Source: Escherichia coli
GTDB lineage: Bacteria; Pseudomonadota; Gammaproteobacteria; Enterobacterales; Enterobacteriaceae
Strand: one strand, 5' to 3'
NCBI RefSeq assembly: GCF_022846255.1
Contig: NZ_AP025682.1
Length of the DNA stretch: 64,000 bases
Shown here in pieces: positions 8,331 through 19,360 of this stretch (its first letter is position 1; the number at the start of each line of letters is the position of its first letter). Below the pieces are notes generated by a model. The model was given only the letters and a program-made list of their open reading frames with translations, ran no database searches and was not told where the DNA came from. Made by a program: the position numbers and the translations under genes.

Positions 8331-10364
8331 TTATTTCACCTGATGACCCGGTTTAGCACCAGCATCCGGACTTAGCAGGAAAATATCTTTCCCGCCAGGA
8401 CCGGCAGCCATCACCATGCCTTCGGAGATACCGAAGCGCATTTTACGTGGTGCCAGGTTAGCCACCATAATGGTGTGACGACCAATTAGTGCCTGCGGAT
8501 CCGGGTAAGCAGAACGAATGCCGGAGAAGACATTGCGTTTTTCACCGCCGAGATCCAGCGTCAGGCGCAGCAGTTTGTCAGAACCTTCAACAAACTCTGC
8601 GTTTTCGATCAGCGCCACGCGCAGGTCAACTTTGGCGAAGTCGTCAAAGGTGATGGTTTCCTGAATCGGATCATCTGCCAGTGGGCCAGTAACTGGCGCG
8701 GCAGCTGCTTTCACTTCTTCTTTAGACGCTTCCACCAGTGCTTCAACCTGCTTCATATCGATGCGGTTATACAGCGCTTTGAACGGATTCACTTTGTGGC
8801 CCAGCAGCGGTTGCTGGATACCATCCCAGGTCAGTTCTGTATTGAGGAATGCTTCTGCGCGCTCGGTCAGTTTCGGCAGTACCGGCTTCAGGTAAGTCAT
8901 CAGCACGCGGAACAGGTTTATGCCCATTGAGCAAATTGCCTGCAGGTCGGCATCGCGGCCTTCCTGTTTTGCCACCACCCACGGAGCCTGTTCATCGACA
9001 TAGCGGTTAGCCAGATCAGCCAGCGCCATGATTTCGCGTACTGCTTTACCAAATTCGCGGCTTTCCCACGCCTCACCAATCACTTCAGCGGCATCAGTGA
9101 AGGTTTTGTACAACTGCGGGTCAGCCAGTTCGCTTGCCAGCACGCCGTCAAAACGCTTGTTGATAAAGCCCGCATTACGAGAGGCCAGGTTAACCACTTT
9201 GTTAACGATATCGGCATTCACGCGCTGAACGAAATCTTCCAGGTTGAGATCGATATCATCAATGCGCGAAGAGAGTTTCGCAGTGTAGTAGTAACGCAGG
9301 CTGTCGGCGTCAAAATGATTCAGCCAGGTGCTGGCCTTAATAAAGGTACCGCGAGACTTAGACATCTTCGCGCCGTTCACCGTCACATAGCCATGAACAA
9401 ACAGGTTGGTCGGCTTGCGGAAGTTGCTGCCTTCCAGCATTGCTGGCCAGAACAGGCTGTGGAAGTAAACAATATCTTTACCGATGAAGTGGTACAGCTC
9501 GGCGGTGGAGTCTTTCTTCCAGTATTCATCGAAGCTTACGCTGTCGCCGCGCTTGTCGCACAGATTCTTGAAAGAACCCATATAGCCAATCGGCGCATCC
9601 AGCCAGACGTAGAAATATTTACCCGGCGCGTTCGGAATTTCAAAACCGAAGTACGGCGCGTCGCGGGAGATATCCCATTGTTGCAGGCCAGATTCAAACC
9701 ACTCCTGCATTTTGTTTGCCACCTGCTCCTGCAACGCACCGCTGCGGGTCCATGCCTGCAGCATTTCGCTGAAAGAGGGCAGATCAAAGAAGAAGTGTTC
9801 AGAATCACGCATTACCGGGGTAGCGCCAGAAACCACCGATTTCGGCTCGATCAGTTCAGTCGGGCTGTAGGTCGCGCCGCAGACTTCGCAGTTATCGCCG
9901 TATTGATCCGGGGATTTACATTTCGGGCAGGTGCCTTTTACAAAACGGTCCGGCAGGAACATGCCTTTTTCCGGATCGTACAGCTGAGAGATGGTGCGGT
10001 TTTTAATAAAACCGTTTTCTTTCAGGCGAGAGTAGATAAGTTCTGACAACTGGCGGTTCTCTTCGCTGTGCGTCGAGTGATAGTTGTCATAGCTGATGTT
10101 AAAGCCTGCGAAATCAGTCTGATGCTCCTGACTCATTTCGCCAATCATCTGCTCCGGAGTGATACCAAGCTGCTGAGCTTTCAACATGATTGGTGTACCG
10201 TGGGCATCGTCGGCGCAGATGAAGTTGACCTCGTGGCCGCGCATTCGCTGGTAACGGACCCAGACATCAGCCTGGATGTGCTCCAGCATATGGCCGAGGT
10301 GGATTGAGCCGTTAGCGTACGGCAGTGCGCACGTCACCAGAATTTTCTTCGCGACTTGAGTCAT
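8331..10364 (-). CDS. metG: methionyl-tRNA synthetase
   Basis: Translation begins [31 protein letters not shown] (class I HIGH motif) and contains KMSKS; 677 aa from the second in-frame ATG. Confidence 0.97.
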
Positions 10365-10495
10365 AGTAGGCATTACTTCTTAATAGTGAAAAGGGGTTAG
10401 ATAGTACCAAATGGGAAAATGTTAAGTAAGTACTTCTCTATATTCTTCAGGTAAACTATCAACTGATGGTTTATCTATACAAAAAAGGAGTCGGG

Positions 10496-11605
10496 ATGAA
10501 CGAACAATCCCAGGCCAAATCACCAGAAGCCTTGCGCGCAATGGTCGCCGGGACACTGGCCAATTTTCAGCACCCAACCCTGAAGCATAACCTCACAACG
10601 CTGAAAGCGTTGCACCATGTCGCCTGGATGGACGACACGCTGCATGTGGAACTGGTTATGCCATTCGTCTGGCATAGCGCGTTCGAAGAGTTAAAAGAGC
10701 AATGTAGCGCCGAACTGCTGCGCATCACCGGAGCGAAAGCTATCGACTGGAAACTGTCGCATAACATAGCCACTCTGAAACGCGTGAAGAATCAGCCGGG
10801 AATTAACGGCGTGAAGAACATTATCGCGGTCAGTTCCGGTAAAGGTGGCGTGGGTAAATCCTCCACGGCGGTAAACCTGGCGTTGGCACTGGCGGCGGAA
10901 GGGGCGAAAGTCGGCATTCTGGACGCCGATATCTACGGCCCATCAATCCCTACCATGCTGGGCGCAGAAAATCAGCGTCCAACTTCGCCGGACGGTACCC
11001 ATATGGCACCGATTATGTCTCATGGCCTGGCAACTAATTCAATTGGTTATCTGGTGACAGACGACAATGCGATGGTGTGGCGTGGCCCAATGGCGAGCAA
11101 GGCGTTAATGCAAATGTTGCAGGAAACCTTGTGGCCGGATCTCGACTATCTGGTGCTTGATATGCCGCCAGGTACCGGTGACATTCAATTGACATTGGCA
11201 CAAAACATTCCAGTAACCGGTGCAGTCGTGGTCACCACCCCGCAGGACATCGCGTTGATCGATGCGAAAAAAGGCATTGTGATGTTCGAGAAAGTCGAAG
11301 TTCCGGTGCTCGGTATTGTCGAGAACATGAGTGTGCATATTTGCAGTAACTGTGGTCACCATGAACCGATTTTCGGTACCGGTGGTGCAGAGAAACTGGC
11401 CGAGAAATACCACACGCAGCTGCTGGGGCAGATGCCGTTACACATCTCCTTACGTGAGGATCTCGATAAAGGCACGCCAACGGTTATCAGCCGTCCTGAG
11501 AGCGAATTTACCGCTATCTACCGCCAGCTGGCTGACCGCGTTGCAGCTCAGCTCTACTGGCAGGGTGAAGTCATTCCAGGCGAGATTTCCTTCCGCGCGG
11601 TCTGA
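10496..11605 (+). CDS. mrp: Fe-S cluster carrier ATPase Mrp/ApbC
   Basis: MNEQSQAKSPEALRAMVAG...; P-loop SGKGGVGKS; CxxC near C-terminus; AAGGAG 7 nt upstream of ATG 10496. Confidence 0.95.
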   Translation: MNEQSQAKSPEALRAMVAGTLANFQHPTLKHNLTTLKALHHVAWMDDTLHVELVMPFVWHSAFEELKEQCSAELLRITGAKAIDWKLSHNIATLKRVKNQPGINGVKNIIAVSSGKGGVGKSSTAVNLALALAAEGAKVGILDADIYGPSIPTMLGAENQRPTSPDGTHMAPIMSHGLATNSIGYLVTDDNAMVWRGPMASKALMQMLQETLWPDLDYLVLDMPPGTGDIQLTLAQNIPVTGAVVVTTPQDIALIDAKKGIVMFEKVEVPVLGIVENMSVHICSNCGHHEPIFGTGGAEKLAEKYHTQLLGQMPLHISLREDLDKGTPTVISRPESEFTAIYRQLADRVAAQLYWQGEVIPGEISFRAV

Positions 11606-11867
11606 CGCGTATTAACCATTCTGGTTATTCTTCATACACCGCAGAGATGTTACATTGATGCGGTGTATTTGTTTTTGCAACATTAATGAACACTTATTTA
11701 ATGCTGCGAATATTCTGCGGACCTTCGTCCGAAACTCTACAAAGTCGATTGATCGTACCGGCGATGCTTCATTATCATCCTTCGTGGCTGTGTAGTGGAT
11801 GTACAGCTATAGTTTGTTATGCACTCATTCTTTCCAGGCATAACCTTTACTACAGGGATAACGTTCA

Positions 11868-12149
11868 ATGAATAAGTACTGGCTGTCAGGAATTATTTTT
11901 CTTGCCTATGGATTGGCTTCTCCCGCGTTCTCTTCAGAAACTGCCACATTAACGATTAATGGTAGGATCAGTCCCCCGACATGCAGTATGGCTATGGTTA
12001 ATGGTCAACCTCAACAGCATTGTGGTCAGTTAACGTATAATGTTGATACCCGTCATCAGGTTTCTTCGCCAGTTAAAGGTGTAACGACGGAAGTGATTGC
12101 TGCAGATAGCGATAGCAAACGTCGAATCGTGTTAAATCGCTACGATTAA
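11868..12149 (+). CDS. yehE: small secreted protein YehE (93 aa, signal peptide)
   Basis: ORF track; N-terminal signal peptide; position upstream of the yeh chaperone-usher genes. Confidence 0.75.
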   Translation: MNKYWLSGIIFLAYGLASPAFSSETATLTINGRISPPTCSMAMVNGQPQQHCGQLTYNVDTRHQVSSPVKGVTTEVIAADSDSKRRIVLNRYD

Positions 12150-12440
12150 TTTGCCACCCTGGTTTAATTGGATTTAGAAAGCTTAAATCATTTACGTGAA
12201 TGATTTAAGCTTTTTTATTGATATTAATAATACCATTTATAGAAATCTACATTAATTAATAGATTTGATAAATATTTAATGTGCTTAAGTATTTGTTGTG
12301 TTTATATTGCAATGGTTAATTTGCTTTAAATCAATAAAACAATGTGTTTACATTGCGGCAACTTTTTGGGTGTGAGAAATTTGTTTCCAAGAGATACAGA
12401 CTCTTAACAACCAAAAATAGATTTTATTAAGGAGCATATT

Positions 12441-12983
12441 ATGAAACGTTCAATTATTGCTGCCGCTGTTTTTTCTTCTTTTTTTATGAGCGCTGGGGTA
12501 TTTGCCGCAGACGTTGATACCGGAACATTAACCATTAAAGGGAATATTGCAGAATCTCCGTGTAAATTCGAAGCAGGTGGCGATTCAGTAAGTATTAATA
12601 TGCCAACTGTACCAACTACGGTCTTTGAAGGTAAAGCTAAATACTCGACCTATGATGGTGCAGTCGGTGTAACCAGCAGCATGTTAAAAATTAGCTGTCC
12701 GAAAGAAGTTGCTGGTGTAAAACTCTCGTTGATTACCAACGATAAAATAACCGGAAACGATAAGGCGATAGCCAGTAGCAACGATACCGTGGGGTATTAT
12801 CTCTATTTAGGTGATAACAGCGATGTCCTGGATGTTTCTGCACCTTTCAACATCGAGAGTTATAAAACAGCGGACGGTCAATATGCTATTCCGTTTAAAG
12901 CAAAATACCTGAAGCTGACAGATAATTCAGTGCAATCAGGTGATGTGTTATCTTCTCTGGTTATGCGTGTGGCGCAGGATTAA
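12441..12983 (+). CDS. yehD: fimbrial major subunit-like protein YehD
   Basis: Signal peptide, conserved Cys pair, typical pilin size (180 aa); first gene of the chaperone-usher cluster. Confidence 0.85.
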   Translation: MKRSIIAAAVFSSFFMSAGVFAADVDTGTLTIKGNIAESPCKFEAGGDSVSINMPTVPTTVFEGKAKYSTYDGAVGVTSSMLKISCPKEVAGVKLSLITNDKITGNDKAIASSNDTVGYYLYLGDNSDVLDVSAPFNIESYKTADGQYAIPFKAKYLKLTDNSVQSGDVLSSLVMRVAQD

Positions 12984-13063
12984 TAAATAAAATTATAAAT
13001 TTTCCCAGGTAATAAACATGGCCGCTATCCCCATGGCGGCCTTTTAATTTAAGAGGCATTAAG

Positions 13064-13738
13064 ATGAAAGGATTATTTGCTTTACTCATTTCTTCTATGG
13101 TCCTTCCTGCACATGCCGGTATTGTTATCTACGGGACGCGTATTATTTACCCGGCAGAAAATAAAGAAGTGATGGTGCAGTTGATGAATCAGGGAAACCG
13201 TTCTTCGCTGCTGCAGGCGTGGATTGATGATGGCGATACGTCGTTACCACCAGAAAAAATTCAGGTTCCTTTCATGTTAACGCCACCAGTGGCAAAAATA
13301 GGGGCAAATTCCGGGCAGCAAGTAAAAATTAAAATTATGCCGAATAAACTACCCACTAATAAAGAGAGTATTTTTTATCTGAATGTTCTGGATATTCCAC
13401 CAAATAGTCCAGAACAAGAAGGTAAGAATGCACTGAAGTTTGCGATGCAAAACAGAATTAAGTTGTTTTACCGGCCAGCGGGTATTGCTCCGGTAAATAA
13501 AGTGACCTTTAAAAAGTTACTGGTAAATCGCAGTGGCAATGGATTGGTGATAAAAAATGACTCAGCTAATTGGGTGACGATTTCGGATGTCAAAGCTAAT
13601 AATGTTAAAGTCAATTATGAAACTATTATGATTGCCCCCTTAGAAAGTCAGAGTGTTAATGTCAAAAGTAATAATGCAAATAACTGGCATCTGACCATTA
13701 TCGATGACCATGGCAATTATATTAGTGACAAAATTTAA
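13064..13738 (+). CDS. yehC: periplasmic fimbrial chaperone YehC (PapD-like)
   Basis: 224 aa with signal peptide; GTRIIYP / NRIKLFYRP chaperone signature motifs. Confidence 0.9.
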   Translation: MKGLFALLISSMVLPAHAGIVIYGTRIIYPAENKEVMVQLMNQGNRSSLLQAWIDDGDTSLPPEKIQVPFMLTPPVAKIGANSGQQVKIKIMPNKLPTNKESIFYLNVLDIPPNSPEQEGKNALKFAMQNRIKLFYRPAGIAPVNKVTFKKLLVNRSGNGLVIKNDSANWVTISDVKANNVKVNYETIMIAPLESQSVNVKSNNANNWHLTIIDDHGNYISDKI

Positions 13739-13753
13739 TTGCAGGAGCTGCCT

Positions 13754-16234
13754 ATGTTGAGAATGACCCCACTTGCATCAGCAATCGTAGCGTTATTGAT
13801 CGGCATTGAAGCTTATGCAGCTGAAGAAACCTTTGATACCCATTTCATGATAGGTGGAATGAAAGACCAGCAGGTTTCAAATATTCGTCTTGAAGATAAT
13901 CAGCCCTTGCCGGGGCAGTATGACATCGATATTTATGTCAATAAGCAATGGCGTGGGAAATATGAGATCTTTGTTAAAGACAACCCGCAAGAAACATGTT
14001 TATCAAGGGAAATGATCAAGCGGTTAGGCATTAATACCGATAGCTTTGCCAGCGGTAAGCAATGTTTAACATTTAAGCAACTTATTCAGGGCGGGAGCTA
14101 TACCTGGGATATCGGAGTTTTTCGTCTCGATTTCAGTGTCCCGCAGGCCTGGGTGGAAGAGCTGGAAAGTGGCTATGTTCCACCGGAAAACTGGGAGCGG
14201 GGTATTAATGCGTTTTATACCTCTTATTATGTGAGTCAGTATTACAGCGATTATAAAGCGTCCGGTAATAGCAAGAGTACATATGTACGTTTTAACAGCG
14301 GGTTAAATTTATTGGGGTGGCAACTGCATTCTGATGCCAGTTTCAGTAAAACAAATAACAATCCAGGGGGGTGGAAAAGCAATACCCTGTATCTGGAACG
14401 TGGATTTGCCCAACTTCTCGGCACGCTTCGTGTGGGTGATATGTACACATCAAGCGATATTTTTGATTCTGTTCGCTTCAGCGGTGTGCGGTTGTTTCGT
14501 GATATGCAGATGTTGCCTAACTCGAAACAAAATTTTACGCCACGGGTGCAGGGGATTGCTCAGAGTAACGCGCTGGTAACTATTGAACAGAATGGTTTTG
14601 TGGTTTATCAGAAAGAGGTTCCTCCTGGCCCGTTTGCGATTACAGATTTGCAGTTGGCCGGAGGTGGAGCAGATCTTGATATCAGCGTGAAAGAGGCGGA
14701 CGGTTCGGTAACCACCTATCTGGTGCCTTATGCAGCGGTACCAAATATGCTGCAACCCGGCGTGTCGAAATATGATTTTGCGGCGGGTCGTAGCCATATT
14801 GAAGGGGCGAGCAAACAAAGTGATTTTGTCCAGGCGGGTCATCAGTATGGTTTTAATAACTTATTAACGCTGTATGGTGGCTCGATGGTCGCGAATAATT
14901 ATTACGCGTTCACTTTGGGGACTGGCTGGAATACACGCATTGGTGCCATTTCCGTCGATGCCACGAAGTCGCATAGTAAACAAGACAACGGCGATGTGTT
15001 TGACGGGCAAAGTTATCAAATTGCCTACAACAAATTTGTGAGCCAAACGTCGACACGTTTTGGTCTGGCGGCCTGGCGTTATTCGTCGCGTGATTATCGG
15101 ACATTTAATGATCACGTATGGGCAAACAATAAAGATAATTATCGCCGTGATGAAAACGATATCTATGACATTGCCGATTATTACCAGAACGATTTTGGCC
15201 GTAAAAATAGCTTCTCTGCCAATATGAGTCAGTCATTGCCAGAAGGCTGGGGTTCTGTGTCCTTAAGTACGTTATGGCGAGATTACTGGGGGCGTAGCGG
15301 CAGCAGTAAGGATTATCAGTTGAGTTATTCCAACAACCTGCGAAGGATAAGCTATACCCTCGCGGCAAGCCATGCTTATGACGAGAATCATCATGAAGAG
15401 AAACGTTTTAATATTTTTATATCGATTCCCTTTGATTGGGGTGATGACGTTACGACGCCTCGTCGGCAAATATATATGTCTAACTCAACGACGTTTGATG
15501 ATCAGGGGGTTGCCTCAAATAATACGGGATTATCAGGAACCGTTGGAAGCCGGGATCAGTTTAACTATGGGGTCAACCTGAGTTATCAGTATCAGGGAAA
15601 TGAAACGACAGCTGGGGCGAATTTAACCTGGAACGCGCCGGTTGCGACAGTGAATGGCAGTTATAGTCAGTCGAGTGCTTATCGACAGGCTGGAGCCAGT
15701 GTTTCAGGGGGCATTGTCGCCTGGTCGGGTGGCGTTAATCTGGCAAACCGTCTTTCTGAAACGTTTGCTGTGATGAATGCGCCAGGAATTAAAGATGCTT
15801 ATGTCAATGGGCAAAAATATCGCACAACAAACCGTAATGGAGTGGTGGTATACGACGGAATGACACCTTATCGGGAAAATTACCTGATGTTGGATGTGTC
15901 ACAAAGCGATAGCGAAGCAGAATTACGTGGCAACCGGAAAATTGCCGCCCCTTATCGCGGCGCGGTTGTACTGGTTAATTTTGATACCGATCAGCGCAAG
16001 CCATGGTTTATAAAAGCATTAAGAGCGGATGGGCAACCATTAACGTTTGGTTATGAAGTCAATGATATCCATGGTCATAATATTGGTGTTGTCGGCCAGG
16101 GAAGCCAGTTATTTATTCGCACCAATGAAGTACCGCCATCGGTTAATGTGGCAATTGATAAGCAACAAGGGCTTTCATGCACAATCACCTTCGGTAAAGA
16201 GATTGATGAAAGTAAAAATTATATTTGCCAGTAA
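13754..16234 (+). CDS. yehB: fimbrial outer-membrane usher YehB
   Basis: About 826 aa, signal peptide MLRMTPLASAIVALLIGIEAYA, usher-size beta-barrel protein between chaperone and adhesin genes. Confidence 0.9.
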   Translation: MLRMTPLASAIVALLIGIEAYAAEETFDTHFMIGGMKDQQVSNIRLEDNQPLPGQYDIDIYVNKQWRGKYEIFVKDNPQETCLSREMIKRLGINTDSFASGKQCLTFKQLIQGGSYTWDIGVFRLDFSVPQAWVEELESGYVPPENWERGINAFYTSYYVSQYYSDYKASGNSKSTYVRFNSGLNLLGWQLHSDASFSKTNNNPGGWKSNTLYLERGFAQLLGTLRVGDMYTSSDIFDSVRFSGVRLFRDMQMLPNSKQNFTPRVQGIAQSNALVTIEQNGFVVYQKEVPPGPFAITDLQLAGGGADLDISVKEADGSVTTYLVPYAAVPNMLQPGVSKYDFAAGRSHIEGASKQSDFVQAGHQYGFNNLLTLYGGSMVANNYYAFTLGTGWNTRIGAISVDATKSHSKQDNGDVFDGQSYQIAYNKFVSQTSTRFGLAAWRYSSRDYRTFNDHVWANNKDNYRRDENDIYDIADYYQNDFGRKNSFSANMSQSLPEGWGSVSLSTLWRDYWGRSGSSKDYQLSYSNNLRRISYTLAASHAYDENHHEEKRFNIFISIPFDWGDDVTTPRRQIYMSNSTTFDDQGVASNNTGLSGTVGSRDQFNYGVNLSYQYQGNETTAGANLTWNAPVATVNGSYSQSSAYRQAGASVSGGIVAWSGGVNLANRLSETFAVMNAPGIKDAYVNGQKYRTTNRNGVVVYDGMTPYRENYLMLDVSQSDSEAELRGNRKIAAPYRGAVVLVNFDTDQRKPWFIKALRADGQPLTFGYEVNDIHGHNIGVVGQGSQLFIRTNEVPPSVNVAIDKQQGLSCTITFGKEIDESKNYICQ

Positions 16235-16249
16235 TAGTCAGGTGGTTCT

Positions 16250-17284
16250 ATGGAAATTCGCATAATGCTATTTATAGTAATGATGATGGTTATGCCTGTG
16301 AGCTATGCGGCATGTTATAGTGAGTTATCTGTTCAGCACAATTTGGTTGTTCAGGGGGATTTTGCACTTACTCAAACACAAATGGCGACCTATGAGCATA
16401 ATTTTAATGATTCGTCATGCGTGAGTACAAATACTATCACACCTATGAGCCCGTCGGATATTATTGTTGGACTTTATAACGATACCATTAAATTAAATTT
16501 ACATTTTGAATGGACCAATAAAAACAACATTACGTTGTCAAATAATCAGACCAGTTTCACCAGTGGTTATTCGGTGACGGTGACACCTGCGGCCAGTAAT
16601 GCAAAAGTGAATGTTTCTGCGGGGGGCGGGGGTTCAGTGATGATTAATGGAGTTGCGACATTATCCAGTGCTTCATCATCGACACGCGGGAGTGCCGCAG
16701 TACAATTTCTACTGTGTTTATTAGGTGGTAAGTCATGGGATGCATGTGTAAATAGCTACAGAAATGCATTGGCACAAAATGCAGGTGTCTATTCCTTTAA
16801 TCTGACATTGTCATACAACCCGATAACCACAACCTGCAAACCGGACGATTTATTAATTACGTTAGAGAGTATTCCCGTTTCACAATTACCAGCCACAGGT
16901 AACAAAACAACAATAAATAGTAAAAAAGGGGATATTATTCTGCGTTGTAAAAATTTATTAGGTCAACAAAATCAAACATCACGGAAAATGCAGGTGTATT
17001 TATCAAGTTCTGATTTGTTAGCCGGCAGTAACACGATCCTGAAAGGTGCAGAAGATAATGGAGTCGGATTTATGCTTGAAAGCAATAGTTCGCCAGTCAC
17101 ATTTTTAAATATCACTGATAACAGCAAAGGGTACACAAATTTAAAAGAAATTGCGGCGAAGTCAAAAATTACAGATACAACGGTCTCAATTCCAGTAACT
17201 GCCAGTTACTATGTTTATGATAAAAATAAAGTAAAATCTGGTGCAATACAGGCAACCGCATTAATCAACGTGAAATACGACTAA
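16250..17284 (+). CDS. yehA: fimbrial adhesin-like protein YehA
   Basis: 344 aa, signal peptide, last gene of the yeh cluster. Confidence 0.8.
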   Translation: MEIRIMLFIVMMMVMPVSYAACYSELSVQHNLVVQGDFALTQTQMATYEHNFNDSSCVSTNTITPMSPSDIIVGLYNDTIKLNLHFEWTNKNNITLSNNQTSFTSGYSVTVTPAASNAKVNVSAGGGGSVMINGVATLSSASSSTRGSAAVQFLLCLLGGKSWDACVNSYRNALAQNAGVYSFNLTLSYNPITTTCKPDDLLITLESIPVSQLPATGNKTTINSKKGDIILRCKNLLGQQNQTSRKMQVYLSSSDLLAGSNTILKGAEDNGVGFMLESNSSPVTFLNITDNSKGYTNLKEIAAKSKITDTTVSIPVTASYYVYDKNKVKSGAIQATALINVKYD

Positions 17285-17340
17285 TAACAAGCAAGACGAG
17301 CAAGTGGCTAATAATAAAAAATAACAAGGTGTCTGCATTT

Positions 17341-17367
17341 CCCCCTCATGATGAGGGGGCTTTTTTT
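17341..17367 (+). terminator. intrinsic terminator after yehA (CCCCCTCATGATGAGGGGG + T7)
   Basis: Perfect GC hairpin followed by TTTTTTT; the rcnB stop codon (17366-17368, minus) lies within the T-tract. Confidence 0.6.
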
Positions 17368-17704
17368 AGCGATGATAAAAAATCTCACCGTCGTAGGCTT
17401 TAATGATTTTACCGTCGGTGTCGCTGATCAACACGTACGCGCCACCCATATAGGTCCAGTGCGTCCCGGCATCAGGCGCGGGCAGGTTACGTAACTGCCA
17501 CTGCTTAATGTTGTACTCATCGGTACGGTACATTTCTGGTACGGTGTCACCTGGTTTGAAATGCTTAAAGTCAGCAATGAAACTGCTTAACTCATACTTA
17601 GAAATTCCCGAGGTATTGGTCGAACCCGCGGTGGCTGGTGCGGCCCAGGCGGCACTGGTAACCAGCAAAAGCGCACCCAGCAACATCTTATTTTTAATGG
17701 TCAT
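17366..17704 (-). CDS. rcnB: periplasmic Ni/Co homeostasis protein RcnB
   Basis: 112-aa product starting MTIKNKMLLGALLLVTSAAWA (signal peptide); the longer 172-aa ORF in the track is an upstream extension. Confidence 0.9.
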   Translation of the reverse strand: MTIKNKMLLGALLLVTSAAWAAPATAGSTNTSGISKYELSSFIADFKHFKPGDTVPEMYRTDEYNIKQWQLRNLPAPDAGTHWTYMGGAYVLISDTDGKIIKAYDGEIFYHR

Positions 17705-17922
17705 AAACTCTCCACTTTGGGGATCTGTAATATCAGTCGCATATCTTTCCTGCCATACAATATAACTGACAAGCGATATTTTGTTAGTGATCCCATGATT
17801 TCGTAAAAAGTGTAAATGAAAGGATGCCCTAAAAGCATCCTTAGCGAGCAGAGAGTCAGCGGAAATAGCTGATTTAAGAATCATCCTGGGCTGAAGATAA
17901 CATGCAAGCCTAAAGGATTGAG

Positions 17923-19229: not shown

Positions 19230-19360
19230 AACCAAACGACTCGGGGTGCCCTTCTGCGTGAAGGCTGAGAAATACCCGTATCACCTGATCTGGATAATGC
19301 CAGCGTAGGGAAGTCACGGACCACCAGGTCATTGCTTCTTCACGTTATGGCAGGAGCAAA
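19230..19360 (+). promoter_or_regulatory. TPP (thiamine pyrophosphate) riboswitch in the thiM leader
   Basis: CGACTCGGGGTGCCCTTCTGCGTGAAGGCTGAGAAATACCCGTATCACCTGATCTGGATAATGCCAGCGTAGGGAAGTCACGG matches the thiM aptamer (thi-box CUGAGA ... ACCUGAUCUGGAUAAUGCCAGCGUAGGGAA); the AGGAG SD just before the ATG is sequestered by the expression platform. Confidence 0.9.

Follow-up and report, generated by a model that had tools for sequence, protein, structure and literature searches.

A stretch of 64,000 nucleotides (nt) of the Escherichia coli chromosome (NCBI RefSeq assembly GCF_022846255.1, contig NZ_AP025682.1), called the window here, contains at 11868-17284 a fimbrial gene cluster that we identify with high confidence as the chromosomal Yeh pilus locus, a classical chaperone–usher system in the gamma-4 clade whose Salmonella orthologue is Stc. 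We found no evidence that contradicts the identification as the Yeh locus. Yeh is already known as one of the core chaperone–usher pili of E. coli, and our analysis mostly confirms textbook annotation. What it adds is modest. The N-terminus of the small secreted protein YehE is homologous to the donor strand of the major pilin YehD, and yehE is always found beside yeh-type operons. In addition, a putative promoter-proximal block upstream of yehD is far better conserved than yehD itself.

Gene content and pilus machinery

The cluster consists of five open reading frames (ORFs) on the same strand (+), all of them intact in the ORF listing, with no frameshift or stop in the four core genes:

11868..12149, + strand: yehE, secreted DUF2574 protein of 93 amino acids (aa)
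12441..12983, + strand: yehD, major pilin, 180 aa; Pfam Fimbrial
13064..13738, + strand: yehC, periplasmic PapD-like chaperone, 224 aa
13754..16234, + strand: yehB, outer-membrane usher, 826 aa; PapC_N, Usher and PapC_C
16250..17284, + strand: yehA, two-domain tip adhesin, 344 aa; receptor-binding domain 21-193 (nt 16310-16828), pilin domain 184-344

The mechanically called yehB ORF starts at an in-frame TTG at 13739, and RefSeq takes the ATG (13754). In the best-matching E. coli genome, the RefSeq order is apbC, yehE, yehD, yehC, yehB, yehA, rcnB (- strand), rcnA (- strand), rcnR, a thiamine pyrophosphate (TPP) riboswitch, and thiM. When 11600-17400 was compared by megablast with 5426 complete E. 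coli genomes, the locus was matched in 5423 of them, with at least 80% of the query covered in 5222 and a best identity of 98.4%. A preliminary description of this DNA had taken the cluster for a full set of PapD-like chaperone, usher, two pilin-like subunits, and a small secreted protein, and the ORFs, Pfam domains, and RefSeq annotation bear this out. A simple heuristic (positive N-region, hydrophobic core, and AXA-type cleavage site) places Sec-type signal peptides on all five proteins, the subunits included. Of that description as a whole, the gene identities, the completeness, and the AT-richness stand, but horizontal acquisition as stated there and an adhesin of unknown specificity do not, and yehE is probably not the first gene of the operon, as discussed below.

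Each part of the assembly machinery is recognizable. YehD combines the Fimbrial domain with a signal peptide cleaved at VFA/AD and a donor-strand-like N-terminus (TGTLTIKGNI), and its Cys41 and Cys86 are invariant among 13 orthologues. The NCBIfam equivalog “fimbrial protein YehD” gives E. coli YehD (12441-12980) 115 bits, below its cut-off of 136; evidently a divergent pilin of the Salmonella or Citrobacter kind underlies the model, and this mirrors the fast evolution of the major subunit. YehC matches PapD_N (E = 4e-41) and PapD_C (E = 4e-9), and its nearest solved structures are CupB2, YadV, PapD, and FimC, the last two at about 1e-25; its best NCBIfam model is StcB of Salmonella. Two residues of mature YehC, Arg8 (in GIVIYGTR) and Lys115 (within the motif IKLFYRP), do not vary among 15 orthologues, and we take these, from the PapD motif and without superposition, to correspond to PapD Arg8 and Lys112, the cleft anchors of the subunit C-terminal carboxylate. 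YehB contains PapC_N, Usher (E = 2e-193), and PapC_C in Pfam, aligns with the FimD structure over residues 22-813 (E = 6e-110) and with PapC (E = 1e-54), and scores 1743 bits over its full length with NCBIfam NF011763 (cut-off 933), which places it in the Yeh usher group. It is 90-95% identical to other Escherichia ushers and 62-83% identical to those of Citrobacter and Salmonella. The gamma-4 clade assignment is taken from PMC12778044, and the Yeh/Stc type is defined by usher phylogeny and locus position (Wurpel 2013, PMC3559732).

With this machinery, YehD as the major pilin and YehA as the tip adhesin would be exported via Sec, YehC would cap both subunits in the periplasm by donor-strand complementation, and YehB would polymerize them by donor-strand exchange, with YehA ending at the tip. 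Assembly of a surface fibre has been reported for the K-12 and UTI89 alleles expressed from a plasmid or a constitutive promoter (PMC5797941, PMC12778044, PMC11287998), and from this literature we infer that the source strain could assemble the pilus as well.

The ratios of nonsynonymous to synonymous substitution rates (dN/dS) indicate purifying selection, at 0.03-0.26 over all five genes and 0.03-0.15 for the four core genes in comparisons with Escherichia relatives. For yehD and yehA the ratio rises to 0.29-0.36 in comparisons with Salmonella and Citrobacter, a distance at which dS is nearly saturated.

The adhesin YehA and its naming

Residues 21-193 of YehA are identical, at 173 of 173 positions, to the crystallized receptor-binding domain in Protein Data Bank entry 9N4G, deposited as “YehD protein,” and the cleavage site predicted for YehA (SYA/ACYS) falls exactly before the first residue of the crystallized mature domain. 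The pilin domain is found by Pfam Fimbrial at residues 184-344 (E = 2e-21), and the full protein scores 675 bits with NCBIfam NF011788 (cut-off 395). The label on the deposited structure is a naming trap: the Hultgren laboratory names the operon yehA (major pilin)-B-C-D (adhesin), whereas the K-12 names run yehD-C-B-A, b2111-b2108 (PMC12778044), so that the published “YehD” adhesin is the K-12 YehA of this window.

The receptor-binding domain has been described as a beta-sandwich with a hinged, alpha-helical two-helix flap; it binds pectic galactan/pectin and also hyaluronic acid, and stains fibrous luminal contents in mouse colon (PMC12778044). In the same study, deletion of yeh in fim-negative UTI89 caused a 1.6- to 3.9-fold colonization defect, and the pilus was found to aid gut colonization (PMC12778044). 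The statement in the preliminary description that the adhesin specificity is unknown is therefore outdated, given the identity to 9N4G and the published binding of pectin and hyaluronic acid. By this identity the window allele is predicted to be an adhesin with an alpha-helical-flap, pectin-binding domain, the fold and the binding being those reported in the paper, and in the source strain the domain would bind a pectin-type plant polysaccharide in gut contents.

This receptor-binding allele is common, being at least 95% identical in 4620 of the 5426 complete genomes, and about 778 genomes (about 14%) gave no megablast match to it. The published count found the adhesin in only about half of genomes despite a nearly universal operon (PMC12778044), which the genomes lacking a match probably explain. 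Beyond this allele, the YehA match is partial, at 44-45% identity, in two members of the cryptic clades, Escherichia sp. MOD1-EC7003 (L009) and Escherichia sp. E1V33 (L012), and in E. coli E69 (L010) a gap of about 1.1 kb separates the end of yehB from the YehA match. It appears that some lineages carry a swapped or interrupted adhesin head.

Base composition and its meaning

The cluster is markedly AT-rich compared with its flanks, as had been stated in the preliminary description: its GC content is 41.4%, against 51.6% for the remainder of the window, and the lowest value among 474 other 5.4-kb intervals is 47.3%. At third codon positions, GC ranges from 0.35 to 0.44 across the yeh genes, compared with 0.57-0.61 for the neighbouring metG, apbC, rcnB, and rcnA. 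The lowest point lies in the spacer between yehE and yehD (12150-12440), at 25.8% GC, and every 291-bp interval in the 64 kb with at most 30% GC starts at 12051-12221. The AT-richness claimed for 12150-12440 thus holds, but not the position given to it, since this is the yehE-yehD spacer and lies upstream of yehDCBA, not of the cluster as it had been delimited.

Low GC is retained in relatives, with spacers of 24-31% GC and 275-299 bp in syntenic loci of three genera. This leaves either an acquisition that predates the genera, followed by scant amelioration, or an AT-richness that is maintained, and these data do not separate the two. In the second case, the low GC would not be a foreign relic but would be upheld by selection, for example for control by H-NS, or by a mutational bias typical of surface-organelle genes, an explanation that we consider plausible, if at somewhat under even chances. 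It is favoured by AT-richness at the same locus in three genera (spacer 24-31%, genes 36-51% GC) despite saturated synonymous sites, and by the conserved length of the spacer, but the yehB genes of Citrobacter and Salmonella are near genome average (0.47-0.51; relatives overall 0.44-0.54), which suggests partial amelioration.

Probable transcription units of the locus

The preliminary description had named the whole cluster yehEDCBA. Sequence comparison across the three genera suggests that yehE is most likely its own transcription unit, apart from yehDCBA, because its terminator covaries, its promoter-like site is conserved, and it is divergent from the fimbrial genes in one lineage. The features that bear on transcription are as follows:

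11749..11778, + strand: sigma-70-like promoter candidate for yehE; TTGATC, 18-nt spacer, TATCAT; from a consensus scan
12176..12221, + strand: predicted intrinsic terminator of yehE; 15- to 18-bp stem, 4- to 6-nt loop, T-run; from a scan
12150..12440, no strand: AT-rich yehE-yehD spacer, putative regulatory region of yehDCBA; 25.8% GC, length and GC conserved in three genera
12289..12440, + strand: conserved promoter-proximal block and yehD 5' leader; core 12323-12362; TTGCTTTAAATCAATAAAACA (12321-12341), GTTTACATTGCGG, and an AAGGAG ribosome-binding site
13020..13041, + strand: GC-rich stem-loop between yehD and yehC; GGCCGCCAT.. stem, then TTTTAATTT; from a scan
17341..17359, + strand: terminator-like hairpin between the convergent yehA and rcnB; CCCCCTCATGATGAGGGGG, then a T-run; from a scan

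The promoter candidate is the only good promoter-like site found upstream of yehE. Escherichia, Citrobacter, and Salmonella all keep its -35 region (ATTGATC), and in the latter two its -10 reads TACAAT; in K-12, a chromatin immunoprecipitation sequencing (ChIP-seq) peak of sigma-S RNA polymerase has been assigned to yehE (PMC4447067). The hairpin downstream of yehE was assessed in an alignment of 15 sequences from three genera, with its 15-pair stem tested against 500 column shuffles. Paired cells make up 91.6% of the stem, two-sided changes occur at 7 of the 15 pairs, and single positions show up to five pair types. The values observed for this stem, and for a 5-pair helix tested alongside, were reached in 0 of 500 shuffles, and sliding the partner columns lowered pairing to 35-52%. 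We therefore predict that this hairpin is a genuine, conserved Rho-independent terminator. Finally, in a lineage whose yeh-type operon occupies a non-syntenic position (L003-L005), the yehE homologue is oriented divergently to the fimbrial genes. On this evidence, yehE would be transcribed on its own and encode a small periplasmic protein; the gene is co-inherited with the operon.

Within yehDCBA, a GC-rich hairpin of 8 to 14 bp lies in the yehD-yehC spacer in 17 of 17 loci (the window and 16 related ones), with a sequence that differs by lineage. By analogy it could be a partial terminator/attenuator or a stabilizer of the pilin mRNA, and it would probably raise the ratio of pilin to assembly proteins. 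The hairpin that follows yehA lies 57 nt past the yehA stop and just beyond the rcnB stop on the opposite strand. An Rfam scan gave nothing within the cluster, and returned just the TPP riboswitch at thiM and, at the yehA/rcnB terminator, an Hrs1 hit below threshold.

The spacer upstream of yehD

The 152 bp before the yehD ATG (12289-12440) show 71-78% identity with their counterparts in the named Citrobacter and Salmonella loci, and the core at 12323-12362 reaches 82-92% identity, averaged over nine non-Escherichia loci in which the YehD protein is mostly 30-40% identical. The 21-mer TTGCTTTAAATCAATAAAACA (12321-12341) is identical at 21 of 21 positions in one of the non-syntenic contigs (L003), at an equal distance from the yehD ATG. 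Upstream of it, ATCATT-N6-AATGAT (12188-12205), the inner part of the yehE hairpin, is invariant in sequence across genera, and the outer stem covaries. The same contig L003 carries an ATCAT-N7-ATGAT palindrome (about 7745-7761, minus strand) upstream of a yehD that no yehE precedes. As a terminator is not needed there, the core of the yehE hairpin may double as a protein-binding DNA site. It is possible that the block at 12321-12362 and the invariant palindrome are sites for a dedicated activator. Candidate features that we dropped are a hairpin in the yehD 5' leader (AAGAG...CTCTT, 12391-12407), with two-sided changes at only 2 of 5 pairs, and CRP-like and Fur-like readings of the conserved spacer motifs, which were unsupported.

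As for silencing, near-matches to the H-NS motif occur at about 10 per kb in the spacer and 1.3 per kb elsewhere (about 8-fold), an enrichment that is due to the AT-rich base composition of the spacer. In K-12, yehDCBA belongs to two H-NS regulon data sets and has been called cryptic, and overproduction of SlyA raises it 3.6-fold (PMC5797941); the yehD/yehE spacer has been described as a 357-bp H-NS-bound “promoter island” (PMC3661553), and the Yeh locus as a static silenced protein-occupancy domain (bioRxiv 10.1101/2024.06.20.599902). Functional fimbriae were obtained from yehDCBA under a constitutive promoter, according to the citation of Korea et al. 2010 in PMC5797941. H-NS silencing is supported by these K-12 studies, and for the source strain we infer it. 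The label “cryptic” is a relative one, as enterohaemorrhagic E. coli (EHEC) transcribes yehDCBA from its native promoter (PMC11287998). In the resulting scheme, yehDCBA would be transcribed from the 26% GC spacer, which H-NS would coat and silence in laboratory K-12, with SlyA relieving the silencing.

Four points count against the account given here. Two of them concern transcription: a sigma-70 scan of the yehE-yehD spacer returned no promoter-like site that met its criteria, nor could a -10/-35 pair be assigned with confidence by eye, and a 2024 preprint writes of the “yehEDCBA operon” (bioRxiv 10.1101/2024.06.20.599902), so that some read-through from yehE may occur. The other two concern the allele: over the locus, no complete RefSeq E. 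coli genome is more than 98.4% identical to the window strain, and yehA ends in a minority allele of about 300 nt, which encodes the C-terminal part of its pilin domain.

The preprint's wording, together with the position of yehE on the same strand and adjacent to yehD in E. coli, would suit a single five-gene operon, yehEDCBA, driven by one promoter in front of yehE. We nevertheless consider this arrangement unlikely. A hairpin with a T-run stands directly 3' of yehE and shows compensatory changes in 7 pairs of its 15-pair stem; the 291-bp spacer that follows contains a separately conserved block just upstream of yehD; and the yehE homologue is divergent in L003-L005. Published experiments also point away from a five-gene unit. 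The four genes are co-transcribed in EHEC as one unit from their native promoter and affect expression of the locus of enterocyte effacement, and both complementation and reverse-transcription PCR take Z3276-Z3279, four genes, as the locus (PMC11287998). The SlyA array names yehDCBA (PMC5797941), and yehE is the sole gene to which the sigma-S ChIP peak was assigned (PMC4447067).

YehE and its pilin-related N-terminus

YehE matches DUF2574 (PF10836) over its whole length (residues 1-93 of 93, 172.3 bits against a cut-off of 27.5). Its signal peptide has an AFS/SE site, leaving a mature protein of 71 aa, and a dN/dS of 0.14-0.26 indicates purifying selection. The family is small and narrow: among 1.84 billion representative proteins, 32 clusters were found at E <=0.001, nearly all of about 90 aa, with homologues solely in Escherichia, Shigella, Citrobacter, and Salmonella, and each homologue whose neighbourhood was read adjoins a four-gene yeh-type operon. 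Conserved features are the signal peptide, TATLTINGR-x3-PTC, a second cysteine, GVTTE, and an invariant C-terminus R-x-I-V-L-N-R-Y-D.

Profile-profile comparison with hhalign matches YehE 1-43 to YehD 1-45 at a probability of 96.8% (E = 2e-10), the aligned region running from the signal peptide through the donor-strand extension to the first cysteine. The same comparison of YehE with the YehA family gave 13.8% and covered the signal peptide only, so the match to YehD is not merely signal-peptide bias. BLASTP between YehE and YehD was not significant, and the relationship is detected by profile comparison alone. A likeness between the C-termini of YehE and YehA (IVLNRYD, INVKYD) is visual only and has no statistical support (hhalign 13.8%), and we set it aside.

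We also rejected YehE as a pilin in its own right: there is no Fimbrial (PF00419) hit at E <=0.01, the alignment with YehD is limited to residues 1-43, and 71 mature residues are too few. The 32 library hits include no ordinary protein of pilin size (150-350 aa), a search of Protein Data Bank sequences gave no hit at E up to 10, and no NCBIfam model matched YehE. AlphaFold2 models are of low confidence, both for YehE alone (12-sequence alignment; mean predicted local distance difference test score, pLDDT, of 53, with residues 1-35 below 50) and for a YehC-(GGGGS)6-YehE fusion (15-species paired alignment; mean pLDDT 54.8, the N-domain of YehC itself at about 40). Profile comparison suggests that the N-terminus of YehE is pilin-derived, but that YehE is not a pilin.

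Could YehE be a functional accessory of the Yeh/Stc pilus, a pilin-derived mini-protein that retains the signal peptide and donor strand of the major pilin? We regard this proposal as speculative and rather unlikely. Its strand could be inserted into the groove of YehD or YehA, making YehE a cap, terminator, or anchor of the fibre, or YehE could titrate subunits in the periplasm. If true, YehE would be a fifth, separately regulated part of the “minimal” four-gene Yeh operon, possibly sigma-S-dependent.

Origin and distribution

The gene order metG (- strand)-apbC-yehE-four fimbrial genes-rcnB (- strand) is shared by E. albertii, E. whittamii, cryptic Escherichia, six Citrobacter genomes, and S. 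enterica subsp. arizonae, a taxonomic range that is a lower bound. Protein identities to the window in the non-Escherichia loci (named genomes and metagenome contigs) fall steeply from the flanks to the adhesin:

MetG and ApbC (flanks): 95-98%
RcnB (flank): 72-80%
YehB: 62-83%
YehC: 57-76%
YehE: 36-54%
YehD: 30-64% (mostly 30-40%)
YehA: 34% or less, or undetectable

Around the locus, a tRNA scan of the 64-kb window found none, no flanking repeats rose above chance, and the annotation of the best-matching genome shows no mobility genes (integrase, insertion sequence) beside it. Wurpel 2013 likewise considered Yeh to be core-associated and ancestral to both Escherichia and Salmonella, and placed the Citrobacter locus at the same site (PMC3559732). 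Any acquisition must therefore be ancient, as the locus is core, is syntenic in Citrobacter and Salmonella, and bears no mobility signature. To call the locus “horizontally acquired,” as the preliminary description had done, is misleading: its composition is foreign-like, yet any transfer predates Escherichia, Citrobacter, and Salmonella.

A recently acquired genomic island, i.e. a xenogeneic insert, is largely refuted by these results and very improbable. It would fit the GC content 10 points under that of the flanks and the third-codon-position GC of 0.35-0.44 against about 0.6, and a table in the SlyA paper flags the operon as overlapping a predicted genomic island (PMC5797941), but the locus is present in 5423 of 5426 complete genomes, its metG-apbC and rcnB flanks are the same in Escherichia species, six Citrobacter genomes, and S. 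enterica arizonae, and no tRNA, integrase, insertion sequence, or flanking direct repeat was found.

Also very improbable is a decayed, non-functional remnant, “cryptic” in the sense of dead, for which one could cite weak expression in laboratory K-12, intact copies in 92% rather than 100% of strains (Wurpel 2013, PMC3559732), partial YehC matches in L015 and L020, and a yehA replaced or interrupted in L010, but against which stand the five intact reading frames of the window, the dN/dS of 0.03-0.15 for the four core genes relative to Escherichia, and the reports of functional fimbriae upon expression, native-promoter expression in EHEC, and a colonization phenotype in UTI89. The partial YehC matches belong to Citrobacter sp. 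Res13 (L015) and C. koseri NCTC10786 (L020), in the second of which YehB is partial as well; these copies may be pseudogenized in those strains.

A yeh-type operon at another chromosomal site is seen in L003-L005 (metagenome and genome contigs, 2660-8273), with YehD 60% and YehB 73% identical to the window. It is flanked by a FHIPEP flagellar-export gene and an NlpC_P60 gene on one side and by a mechanosensitive-channel gene on the other, and a (CTGCTT)n run follows its yehE and is then interrupted by Ns.

Allele mosaicism and neighbouring features

Segments of the window differ in how closely they match the genome with the best-matching yeh locus:

metG: 95.8%
apbC: 99.9%
yehB: 99.8%
last 300 nt or so of yehA and the spacer to rcnB: about 88-90%

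Of 5426 complete genomes, only 10 match the allele of the yehA 3' end and the yehA-rcnB spacer (16985-17365) at 99% or more, and 5251 match it at 90-95%. The allele resembles a recombination patch ending inside the pilin domain of the adhesin, and the mosaic as a whole is ordinary recombination mosaicism. On the other side of the locus, metG (8331-10373) is 95.8% identical to the genome that best matches yeh, with an abrupt return to more than 99.9% in apbC, and its best match anywhere is 99.1%; metG-like DNA was also found on 219 plasmid records of the E. coli collection.

Right after the apbC stop, 11634-11668 holds a palindrome with 17-nt arms (ATACACCGCAGAGATGT / ACATTGATGCGGTGTAT), and a T-rich run comes after it. 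The palindrome probably serves as terminator of apbC, and its sequence itself, not structure alone, is kept across Escherichia, Citrobacter, and Salmonella, which is unusual for a terminator. Downstream, the mechanically called rcnB ORF (17366-17884) has 172 aa from an upstream ATG, against 112 aa in RefSeq (17366-17704); the RcnB Pfam domain lies in the C-terminal part of the 172-aa ORF, so this is probably mere over-extension of the ORF. The TPP riboswitch upstream of thiM, at 19232-19328 (Rfam RF00059, 71 bits, E = 8e-13), is expected and is annotated in RefSeq.

Relation to known pili and significance

The window has the same genes, order, flanks, and domain architecture as the Yeh pilus of E. 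coli K-12 and UTI89, from which it differs only allelically, and the crystallized receptor-binding domain of the UTI89 adhesin is 100% identical to its YehA. Stc (stcABCD) of Salmonella enterica, described as the Salmonella counterpart of Yeh (PMC12778044, PMC3559732), shares the chromosomal slot, the four-gene layout, and an upstream yehE homologue. Identity to the window in S. arizonae reaches 81% for the usher and 71% for the chaperone but only 34% for the major pilin, and a tblastn search there for the YehA adhesin gave no match; the receptor specificity of Stc therefore probably differs from that of Yeh. The Yhl (Yeh-like) pilus is a sister gamma-4 system whose adhesin has the same alpha-helical flap fold; its receptor-binding sequence is 14% identical, it binds colonic mucosa rather than luminal fibre, and it is confined to phylogroup E (PMC12778044).

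Type 1 (Fim) and P (Pap) pili belong to the same class of assembly machinery, YehB resembling FimD and PapC, and YehC resembling PapD and FimC. Compared with them, the Yeh operon is minimal, lacking adaptor and terminator pilins, and no invertible switch or PapI/PapB-type regulators are adjacent to it; the helical flap of its adhesin is absent from FimH and PapG (PMC12778044).

H-NS silencing of Yeh has been documented since 2010, and the structure of its adhesin and one ligand were published in 2026. The practical value of the present analysis lies in three corrections: the naming of the adhesin, an ancient rather than recent locus, and a yehE that is most likely a separate unit. Two loose ends, the function of YehE and the conserved promoter block, are both cheap to address at the bench, and the role of YehE and the protein that binds the block could explain when this “cryptic” pilus is made.

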